From sequence record OR532814.1: 64,000 nt of DNA. One strand, written 5' to 3'. The notes beneath the pieces were generated by a model. The model had not been told where the DNA came from and ran no database searches. It worked only from the letters and a program-made list of their open reading frames with translations. This DNA is from Klebsiella phage RCIP0020. Positions 30,961 through 32,088 of the stretch are shown in pieces (within the stretch, counting starts at the first letter, position 1; each line of letters opens with the position of its first letter). The position numbers and the translations under genes were made by a program.

Positions 30961-31020
30961 TTTGTTTCTGTAGGCCCAATATAACAAAAGCCCTTGACCG
31001 AAGTCAAGGGCTTTGTTTTA
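30961..31020 (-). promoter_or_regulatory. PeSL cassette
   Basis: Minus strand reads AAAGCCCTTGACTTCGGTCAAGGGCTTTTGTTATATTGGGCCTACAGAAACAAAG. Confidence 0.6.
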
Positions 31021-32088
31021 AATTCCGGTAAATGCAACGATGATTTGATAATGGTCATCGAAGAATTGATCACGCATCGCGATCACTTCATGCATAGGTA
31101 GCCAGAACGCGTCTGCTGCATCATCAGAGCCGCCCATAATACGAGGCAATGAACCATCGTTATTAGGTTCGAGCTTGATATACTGTGCTACAGTGGGTTT
31201 TGAGAAGTACACCGAACGTTTCGGATGATCGAACAGCATCGAATTACGGATAGAACCACGAATAACCTTTTCAGGTACTTTAATTCGTACTTCTTCCAGC
31301 AATTCACGGATCGCACAATCAAGGAACGTTTCGTTACCGTTTTTGTGTCCACCCGGAAGCGCTAACGCATCTTTACCAGGCGCAAACTTACGACGGATTA
31401 CTAACACGTGGTTATTACATACGACCACTGAATCAGCCGTACAACAGTTCAGAGAATCCGGATACGGATATTTTTTGAACTTGTCAATCTCTCGTTGCCA
31501 GTGTGCATCTTCATGGGACAAACGCTGGAATTCTTTTGTTTGTGTCCATTCATCGATAAAGGAAACCGTAGTGCTAGGCGCATATTTTAACAAATCTTCG
31601 TCCCAGCCTTCATGGTGTTCCCAGATAATTTTGCGTAAATTGGTCGAGGATAGATCCTGATCTCCAACCTTCACAGGTTCAACCGGAATATGATTCCATC
31701 CGAATGCTTTAAGCCAGTAAGAATCTTTGTCTTTTTCGTACCCAACGATCGCAATTCGATCATTTCGAGTTTCATCGATTGCCATACGAACACGGGATTT
31801 CCATTTTTCCTCGTTATAGAGGTAATCAGGAATGTGCGCGAATTTGATTCTGGCTGCATCTTCAACATCAAGTTTGCAGATAGACCAGCGAGTGATCATT
31901 GCTTGACGCTGTTTAGCGGTCAATGGGTTTAATGTGTTCGGATATGCATAAGCAGAACCAATCAGAATGTAAACCGTATCAGCAACAGCAAGGGCTTCCC
32001 TTACCATTTTCTCATGACCATAGTGAAAAGGTTGAAAACGTCCAATTACTACAGCTTTATCATATTTGTGTTTCATAACGTGCTCCAC
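31018..32088 (-). CDS. bifunctional NMN adenylyltransferase (NadM-type) / Nudix ADP-ribose pyrophosphatase, NatV-like
   Basis: N-terminal cytidylyltransferase HxGH motif GRFQPFHYGH. C-terminal Nudix box GGHKNGNETFLDCAIRELLEEVRI. Confidence 0.75.
   Translation of the reverse strand: MEHVMKHKYDKAVVIGRFQPFHYGHEKMVREALAVADTVYILIGSAYAYPNTLNPLTAKQRQAMITRWSICKLDVEDAARIKFAHIPDYLYNEEKWKSRVRMAIDETRNDRIAIVGYEKDKDSYWLKAFGWNHIPVEPVKVGDQDLSSTNLRKIIWEHHEGWDEDLLKYAPSTTVSFIDEWTQTKEFQRLSHEDAHWQREIDKFKKYPYPDSLNCCTADSVVVCNNHVLVIRRKFAPGKDALALPGGHKNGNETFLDCAIRELLEEVRIKVPEKVIRGSIRNSMLFDHPKRSVYFSKPTVAQYIKLEPNNDGSLPRIMGGSDDAADAFWLPMHEVIAMRDQFFDDHYQIIVAFTGI

Follow-up and report, generated by a model that had tools for sequence, protein, structure and literature searches.

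The gene nadM, which lies on the minus strand at 31018..32076 of the 64-kb stretch of DNA analyzed here (the window), very probably encodes a bifunctional NadM-Nudix enzyme. Judging from its sequence, the product would be an orthologue of NatV of Vibrio phage KVP40 and would supply the 'Nmnat' half of the NARP2 pathway. NARP2, which has been characterized in KVP40, was named in a 2024 preprint by Osterman et al., who put its share of phage genomes at about 1.1%, and the link between NAD+ rebuilding and counter-defence that the first-pass annotation of this DNA had drawn corresponds to this published pathway (bioRxiv 10.1101/2024.02.11.579819). The NadM-Nudix protein of the genus Slopekvirus has been described before and is an unremarkable member of NARP2. 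All Klebsiella Slopekvirus phages were found to encode NAD salvage enzymes (2025, PMC11845039), the syntenic orthologue in Escherichia phage RB16 was entered in GenBank in 2010 as 'putative bifunctional protein: NMN adenylyltransferase/NUDIX hydrolase', and the name 'NMN adenylyltransferase/NUDIX hydrolase' is also used in several Slopekvirus records. The practical value of the present assignment is therefore one of annotation hygiene, because most relatives are still labeled 'cytidyltransferase' or 'hypothetical protein'. The NMN adenylyltransferase (NMNAT) and ADP-ribose pyrophosphatase chemistry, as well as the counter-defence effect discussed below, are taken from the literature on homologues. 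By analogy, Slopekvirus NadM should possess both activities, which have been recorded only for its homologues from Synechocystis, Francisella and KVP40 (for KVP40 NatV, Lee, Li & Miller 2017, as cited in later work).

The coding sequence is contained in a minus-strand open reading frame (ORF) at 31018..32088, which comprises 356 aa if begun at a GTG codon. The first-pass annotation had assigned this whole extent to the enzyme on the basis of two sequence strings, and both are encoded by the ORF, GRFQPFHYGH close to the N-terminus of the product and GGHKNGNETFLDCAIRELLEEVRI in its C-terminal half. The ORF and its motifs thus stand as described, but the end at 32088 does not, since translation almost certainly begins with the ATG at 32076. 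The 5' sequence reads ...AAC GTGGAG CACGTT ATG AAA..., and the GTG at 32088 overlaps a Shine-Dalgarno motif GGAG (32083..32086, minus strand) located 6 nt 5' of the ATG, at a position equivalent to that of the ribosome-binding site (RBS) annotated in the relative KLB25. The coding sequences of two relatives are annotated from the equivalent ATG and encode 352 aa. We therefore rejected the GTG as a start and defined the coding sequence as 31018..32076 (352 aa plus stop), an assignment based on the ORF, the RBS and the Pfam, NCBIfam, PDB and PHROG matches of the product. Residue numbers follow the 352-aa protein unless the 356-aa ORF is stated.

Profile searches identified both halves of the enzyme within a single polypeptide. 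Pfam CTP_transf_like (PF01467, 6.3e-11) matched residues 14-102 and Pfam NUDIX (PF00293, 4.4e-13) residues 219-350 of the 356-aa ORF, both over the gathering score. The top NCBIfam models were all named 'bifunctional nicotinamide-nucleotide adenylyltransferase/Nudix' and aligned end to end (best 3.6e-79); archaeal NMNAT (PRK01153, 7e-18) and NadR models (1.6e-8) ranked behind them, and the NMNAT model PRK13793 covered residues 8-191 of the 356-aa ORF (4e-24). All seven PRK05379 equivalog sub-models scored under their curated cut-offs, the best being NF003786 with 266.5 bits versus 397, which places the product outside the narrow bacterial sub-families and inside the broad family. The two domains are collinear with solved NadM-Nudix structures: query residues 5-353 aligned to residues 3-337 of the Synechocystis protein (PDB 2qjo, 341 aa; E 8.9e-54), and query residues 5-351 to residues 3-342 of Francisella NadM (PDB 2qjt; see also 2r5w; E 7.2e-46), the enzyme against which the first-pass annotation had proposed to compare the product. 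The protein is also a full-length member of phrog_395 (4e-100), which bears the PHROG name 'cytidyltransferase', and this name accounts for the vague GenBank label of the same wording on many relatives. The Pfam, PDB 2qjo and phrog_395 matches exclude a chance resemblance. Domain order in Pfam, the NCBIfam score of 3.6e-79 and the full-length matches to 2qjo and 2qjt all agree with the NadM-Nudix identity that had been suggested from the motifs.

The NMNAT domain, which belongs to the HIGH superfamily of nucleotidyltransferases, spans approximately aa 4-187 (31516..32067, minus strand) as judged from PRK13793, CTP_transf_like and the collinearity with 2qjo and 2qjt. It contains the HxGH motif H18-Y-G-H21 (32014..32025, minus strand) within GRFQPFHYGH and a second nucleotide-binding motif of the form SSTxxR, S143-S-T145-N-L-R148 (31633..31650, minus strand), which corresponds to 'SSTAIR' in 2qjo. 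The Nudix hydrolase domain (approximately aa 215-346; 31039..31434, minus strand) was assigned from Pfam NUDIX and is collinear with the ADP-ribose (ADPR) pyrophosphatase domain of 2qjo and 2qjt. Its Nudix box reads G243-x5-E249-x7-R257-E258-L-L-E261-E262-V-R-I265 (31282..31350, minus strand); relative to the consensus Gx5Ex7REUxEExGU, the final G is replaced by R, likewise in Synechocystis NadM ('EETRL').

We located these motifs in an alignment of nine sequences, consisting of the query, its homologues from RB16, an Aeromonas phage, Vibrio phage PVA23 (Schizotequatrovirus), Sinorhizobium phage phiM7, the jumbo Klebsiella phage K64-1 and Caulobacter phage CcrSC, and the two crystallized enzymes, which are 32-71% identical to the query. 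I11, G12, R13, F14, G20 and H21 were invariant in all nine sequences, and H18 was kept in eight of them. T145 and R148 of the SxTxxR motif were likewise invariant throughout, as were P241, G242, G243, R257, E258, E261 and E262 of the Nudix box. Because catalytic motif residues are invariant across the nine sequences, both the NMNAT and the Nudix active site are intact, and the HxGH motif and Nudix box noted in the first-pass annotation are both present in the translation with their catalytic residues. A dN/dS of 0.056 was obtained against KLB25 alone, a figure with few substitutions behind it.

At the DNA level, nadM is 99.9% identical to its counterpart in Klebsiella phage phi1_146007 (PP889462.1), and a megablast search returned 144 phage records, mostly Klebsiella phages of 171-180 kb. 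KLB25 is classified in the family Straboviridae, genus Slopekvirus, and the window, which corresponds to approximately 94.6-158.6 kb of PP889462.1, is from a Klebsiella Slopekvirus, that is, a KP15-like member of the T4-like Straboviridae. NadM homologues are encoded in 438 phage records. Protein identity was 100% to Klebsiella phage Kpn35c1, 96% to KP15 and 71% to RB16, and amounted to about 50% for Aeromonas T4-like phages and about 41% for phages of Schizotequatrovirus, to which KVP40 belongs. The relationship to KVP40 NatV, already suggested from the motifs, was examined with PVA23 standing in for KVP40 and held: with 98% of the length aligned, the PVA23 protein shows about 41% identity (E ~1e-73). 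Slopekvirus NadM shares with KVP40 NatV the two-domain architecture and the setting in a T4-like phage (Straboviridae), and with PVA23, compared in KVP40's stead, a Nudix box of the 'PGGH' form. It differs from KVP40 NatV in genus and host, being encoded by a Slopekvirus that infects Klebsiella, and in sequence, with the identity of about 41% measured via PVA23.

In NARP2, the Nmnat protein acts together with Nampt (NadV). In agreement with the first-pass annotation, which saw no Nampt gene in the window, tblastn with the Nampt of a relative gave nothing better than E = 1 across the 64 kb, and none of the 14 window ORFs of at least 300 aa is Nampt-like according to the annotation of relatives; together, these results rule out a Nampt hidden in the window. 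A search of the remainder of the genome had been proposed, and the partner was found there in the near-identical relative PP889462.1. This genome encodes a 477-aa Nampt at 24775..26208 with the domains NAMPT_N (PF18127, 2.6e-22) and NAPRTase (PF04095, 6.9e-41), separated from nadM by about 99 kb in map coordinates, or by 75 kb in the opposite direction around the circle, and the protein has 53% identity with its counterpart in Vibrio phage D490. The NadM and Nampt genes co-occur across phages. At an identity of at least 60%, NadM has homologues in 175 records and Nampt in 178; within the group of near-identical Klebsiella phages, 109 records encode NadM (at least 95%) and 108 encode Nampt (at least 99%). 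The two genes, unlinked in PP889462.1, are also unlinked in KVP40-type Vibrio phages: in D490, NadM maps to about 124 kb and Nampt to about 172 kb, 48 kb apart. PVA23 has no Nampt within 5 kb on either side of NadM, and an operon-like NadM-Nampt layout was accordingly not found in the KVP40 group.

nadM is flanked by candidate transcription signals. A sigma-70 promoter, TTGACA-16 nt-TATAAT (32199..32226, minus strand), matches the consensus in 12/12 positions and is predicted to be the likely early promoter of the gene; it is the only 12/12 sigma-70 site within 28000..35500. At the other end, an intrinsic-terminator-like hairpin with a 12-bp stem (6 G-C pairs), a loop of 4 and a T-rich tail (30987..31014, minus strand) starts 4 nt past the stop codon. 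The interval between the stop codon of the upstream SPFH gene (32253) and the nadM ATG (32076) measures 176 bp. The gene order tk - rI - SPFH - NadM is conserved with RB16, in which a hairpin and then a promoter with 10/12 matches precede the nadM orthologue. These matches suggest that nadM forms a discrete early transcription unit dependent on host RNA polymerase, with the timing predicted from the consensus sequences. A 32-aa ORF between promoter and nadM is doubtful as a co-transcribed partner, its ATG being located inside the -10 hexamer. Genes of nucleotide metabolism, e.g. thymidine kinase, are found near nadM. Elsewhere, the window encodes a macro-domain protein (35321..35794) with a weak ThsA_Macro-like match and a second, stand-alone Nudix protein (52055..52462).

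Our working model for NadM in infected cells is as follows. nadM would be transcribed early off its own strong sigma-70 promoter. Host NADase effectors of the TIR, SIR2 or SEFIR type would cleave NAD+ to nicotinamide and ADP-ribose, and the C-terminal Nudix domain of NadM would convert the ADP-ribose to AMP and ribose-5-phosphate. Ribose-5-phosphate would presumably be turned into PRPP by host Prs, since no Prs/Adps-like product is found among the 284 annotated features of PP889462.1 (by annotation only). The phage Nampt, presumably encoded 75-100 kb off as in PP889462.1, would then form NMN from PRPP and nicotinamide, and the N-terminal NMNAT domain would use NMN and ATP to restore NAD+. As an outcome, the NAD+ supply of the phage would be kept up despite NAD+-depleting abortive-infection systems. 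NAD+ depletion is a common end-point of anti-phage systems in bacteria, among them Thoeris, DSR1/2, SIR2-HerA and certain variants of CBASS, Pycsar and pAgo, and a phage that rebuilds NAD+ escapes many NAD+-depleting systems at once. Type I Thoeris and DSR2 have been reported to lose their defence effect in the presence of KVP40 Nampt and Nmnat, and NAD+ to rise (bioRxiv 10.1101/2024.02.11.579819).

Genetic data are available for vB_KP_P4, a Klebsiella Straboviridae phage of 176,180 bp and 41.8% GC that carries nadM and Nampt (2026, PMC13505451). The '176 bp preceding nadM' stated for this phage are exactly the gap in the window, and its ORF_091 locus is very probably the same locus as the nadM described here. 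Based on this gap together with the 176-kb length, the GC content and the family, vB_KP_P4 appears to be the same phage type. Deletion of its nadM reduced the host range from 109 to 5 strains, a result obtained, as its authors caution, without complementation or defined defence systems (PMC13505451). Deletions of the dCMP deaminase and clamp loader genes gave similar phenotypes (PMC13505451), which suggests a general loss of fitness rather than specific counter-defence. For Klebsiella phage therapy, the pair of nadM and Nampt could plausibly serve to mark phages with a broad host range.

The same enzyme might instead serve as an auxiliary metabolic gene (AMG) product that provides NAD+ for the phage's own needs in every infection, such as the redox load of nucleotide synthesis or NAD+-consuming phage enzymes, with counter-defence as a side benefit. 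We regard this as unlikely. To our knowledge, many T4-like phages, T4 included, replicate without NAD+ salvage genes, which argues that these genes are dispensable for basic replication. No ADP-ribosyltransferase is annotated in PP889462.1 (by annotation only), and the KVP40 pair acts specifically by restoring plating on hosts that carry Thoeris or DSR2 (bioRxiv 10.1101/2024.02.11.579819). On the other hand, NARP2 raises NAD+ even without a defence system (bioRxiv 10.1101/2024.02.11.579819), so that counter-defence need not be its sole or primary role. The Slopekvirus study counts the genes among the AMGs that act in redox, nucleotide synthesis and RNA-polymerase modification (PMC11845039), the original KVP40 work is cited for a pathway of pyridine-nucleotide scavenging that serves deoxyribonucleotide synthesis, and the nadM deletion mutant of vB_KP_P4 plated with an EOP of 0.14 even on its propagation host (PMC13505451). 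The location of nadM among nucleotide-metabolism genes such as thymidine kinase is also consistent with a metabolic role. The two roles are not mutually exclusive.

Two further readings give more weight to the Nudix half. In one, the Nudix domain of NadM would do more than regulate NAD+ turnover and would form, with the macro-domain and stand-alone Nudix proteins of the window, a wider Slopekvirus network of ADP-ribose processing that also destroys ADPR-derived immune signals (e.g. Thoeris gcADPR) or ADP-ribosyl marks, and NadM would thereby counter NAD+-based immunity at both the signaling and the depletion step; we offer this as a speculation with little chance of being correct. In the other, to which we give hardly any credence, the main job of the protein would be the removal of ADP-ribose or its derivatives (free ADPR, NAD-capped RNA or immune signals built on ADPR, e.g. 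gcADPR of Thoeris), with NMNAT as the secondary activity. The Nudix catalytic residues are indeed conserved as strictly as those of the NMNAT domain, and the macro-domain and stand-alone Nudix proteins of the window suggest a wider investment in ADPr processing. However, the invariant NMNAT motifs and the strict co-occurrence with Nampt make sense only if NMN is adenylated, and NadM-type Nudix domains are not known to act on cyclic ADPR signals. That the N-terminal domain is another nucleotidyltransferase of the HIGH family (glycerol-3-phosphate cytidylyltransferase, PPAT or FAD synthetase), as the label 'cytidyltransferase' on many relatives and weak matches to FAD_syn (0.019), Citrate_ly_lig (0.02) and PPAT (3e-5) might suggest, is next to inconceivable: the PPAT and FAD synthetase models of NCBIfam reach only 1e-3 to 1e-5, the matches to these enzymes and to citrate-lyase ligase are N-terminal only, far under the cut-offs and confined to the shared HxGH region, no TagD/TarD-type (glycerol-3-phosphate cytidylyltransferase) model appeared in the NCBIfam profile search, with which the unrelated cytidylyltransferase considered in the first-pass annotation falls away, and the NMNAT/NadM models are better by 60-75 orders of magnitude over the full length, with end-to-end homology to crystallized NMNAT/ADPRases.

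As a bifunctional NadM-Nudix enzyme, the Slopekvirus protein can be compared with several characterized systems. Synechocystis slr0787 (2QJO) and Francisella tularensis NadM (2QJT/2R5W) are collinear with it over the full length and have identical catalytic motifs, but are only 33-36% identical. The Nudix domain of Synechocystis NadM binds ADPR, and the enzyme partners NadV in nicotinamide salvage pathway II. While nadM and nadV of Synechocystis form one NrtR-regulated operon, the Slopekvirus genes are not linked, and nadM is preceded by a predicted constitutive-type promoter of its own. Among the phage pathways, NARP1 (Adps and Namat) also uses the products of NADases to rebuild NAD+, and its Namat is a homologue of Nampt; in NARP1, however, ADPR is phosphorylated directly to ADPR-PP, and NMNAT is not needed (bioRxiv 10.1101/2024.02.11.579819). 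NARP1 and NARP2 have been reported together in no phage (bioRxiv 10.1101/2024.02.11.579819). NARP3, which consists of the NadR-like protein Bas30_86 and PnuC, likewise employs a phage NMNAT domain that converts NMN to NAD+ against NAD+-depleting defence (PMC13464706). In Bas30_86 this domain is fused to a ribosylnicotinamide kinase, whereas in Slopekvirus NadM it is fused to Nudix, and NARP3 begins with imported nicotinamide riboside, NARP2 with nicotinamide and PRPP (PMC13464706). The archaeal NMNATs of M. jannaschii (1F9A) and M. thermautotrophicum (1EJ2) are without a Nudix domain, unlike Slopekvirus NadM, and represent the same type as its N-terminal domain, to which they match over the first ~60 residues (E 3e-7 to 2e-6).

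The G+C-rich hairpins that we found in the sequence abutting or containing -35 hexamers lie at 32226..32245 and 30978..31014 on the minus strand of the window, and at 3834..3878 of the comparison locus (L007) of Escherichia phage RB16. The hairpin AGCCCCC-TCTTT-GGGGGCT runs directly up to the TTGACA (-35) of the nadM promoter. The stem of the nadM terminator holds a TTGACT, which acts as -35 hexamer for the promoter-like site that follows. This hairpin-plus-promoter layout is also kept in RB16. It has the look of a tightly packed junction between terminator and promoter, as is typical for the nadM early region.

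Between the promoter and nadM lies a 99-nt ORF (32102..32200, minus strand) for a 32-aa hydrophobic peptide, MNIKQIVLTILISLFFGFIGGLFGVLIIASVL; in relatives it is labeled "cellulose biosynthesis protein" or has only a hypothetical-protein label. The -10 element of the nadM promoter, TATAAT (32204..32199), contains the ATG of this ORF (32200), so that a transcript from the nadM promoter cannot carry it. The ORF is either expressed by upstream read-through only or not a gene at all.

The gene order tk - rI - SPFH - NadM is common to the window and RB16. Directly upstream of nadM is the gene for the SPFH/Band 7 protein, which has a hydrophobic N-terminal segment (32253..33179), and downstream are those for an nrdC.11 homologue, an RlaP-family nucleotidyltransferase of the RNA-repair-pathway pol-beta type (28468..29475), and, after it, a phage ProQ C-terminal-like protein (29475..29852), all on the minus strand. 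Nampt, the NARP2 partner, lies outside the window and was located in Klebsiella phage phi1_146007 at PP889462.1 24775..26208 (locus L002), with small genes of hypothetical product on one side, a DNA methyltransferase on the other, and the nrdD/nrdG region close by. Nampt and nadM are 75-100 kb apart in that genome, and adjacent NARP2 halves were found in none of the T4-like phages examined.

Some 3.2 kb upstream of nadM, the minus strand also encodes a macro-domain protein (35321..35794; Pfam Macro 5e-7; phrog_335, "phosphatase"), whose ThsA_Macro match is weak (8e-4, under the cut-off). It is a further ADP-ribose binder or processor in the early region of nadM. The window also encodes a second, stand-alone Nudix hydrolase of 135 aa (52055..52462, minus strand; Pfam NUDIX 1.8e-14; phrog_1185), probably a T4 NudE-type enzyme.

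Three further minus-strand proteins are not tied to the nadM finding. The first, of 447 aa (39319..40662), is a PIN plus PhoH fusion; the second, of 420 aa (44656..45918), contains a SPASM iron-sulfur domain and is labeled "Fe-S oxidoreductase" in relatives; the third, of 738 aa (22945..25161), is of the von Willebrand factor A type. Finally, a GmrSD_N (DUF262-type) domain (match 9.4e-19) is present in the protein encoded at 50523..51104 (minus strand), whose PP889462.1 counterpart carries the label "DefenseFinder protein"; half of a GmrSD-like restriction enzyme borne by a phage is unusual.
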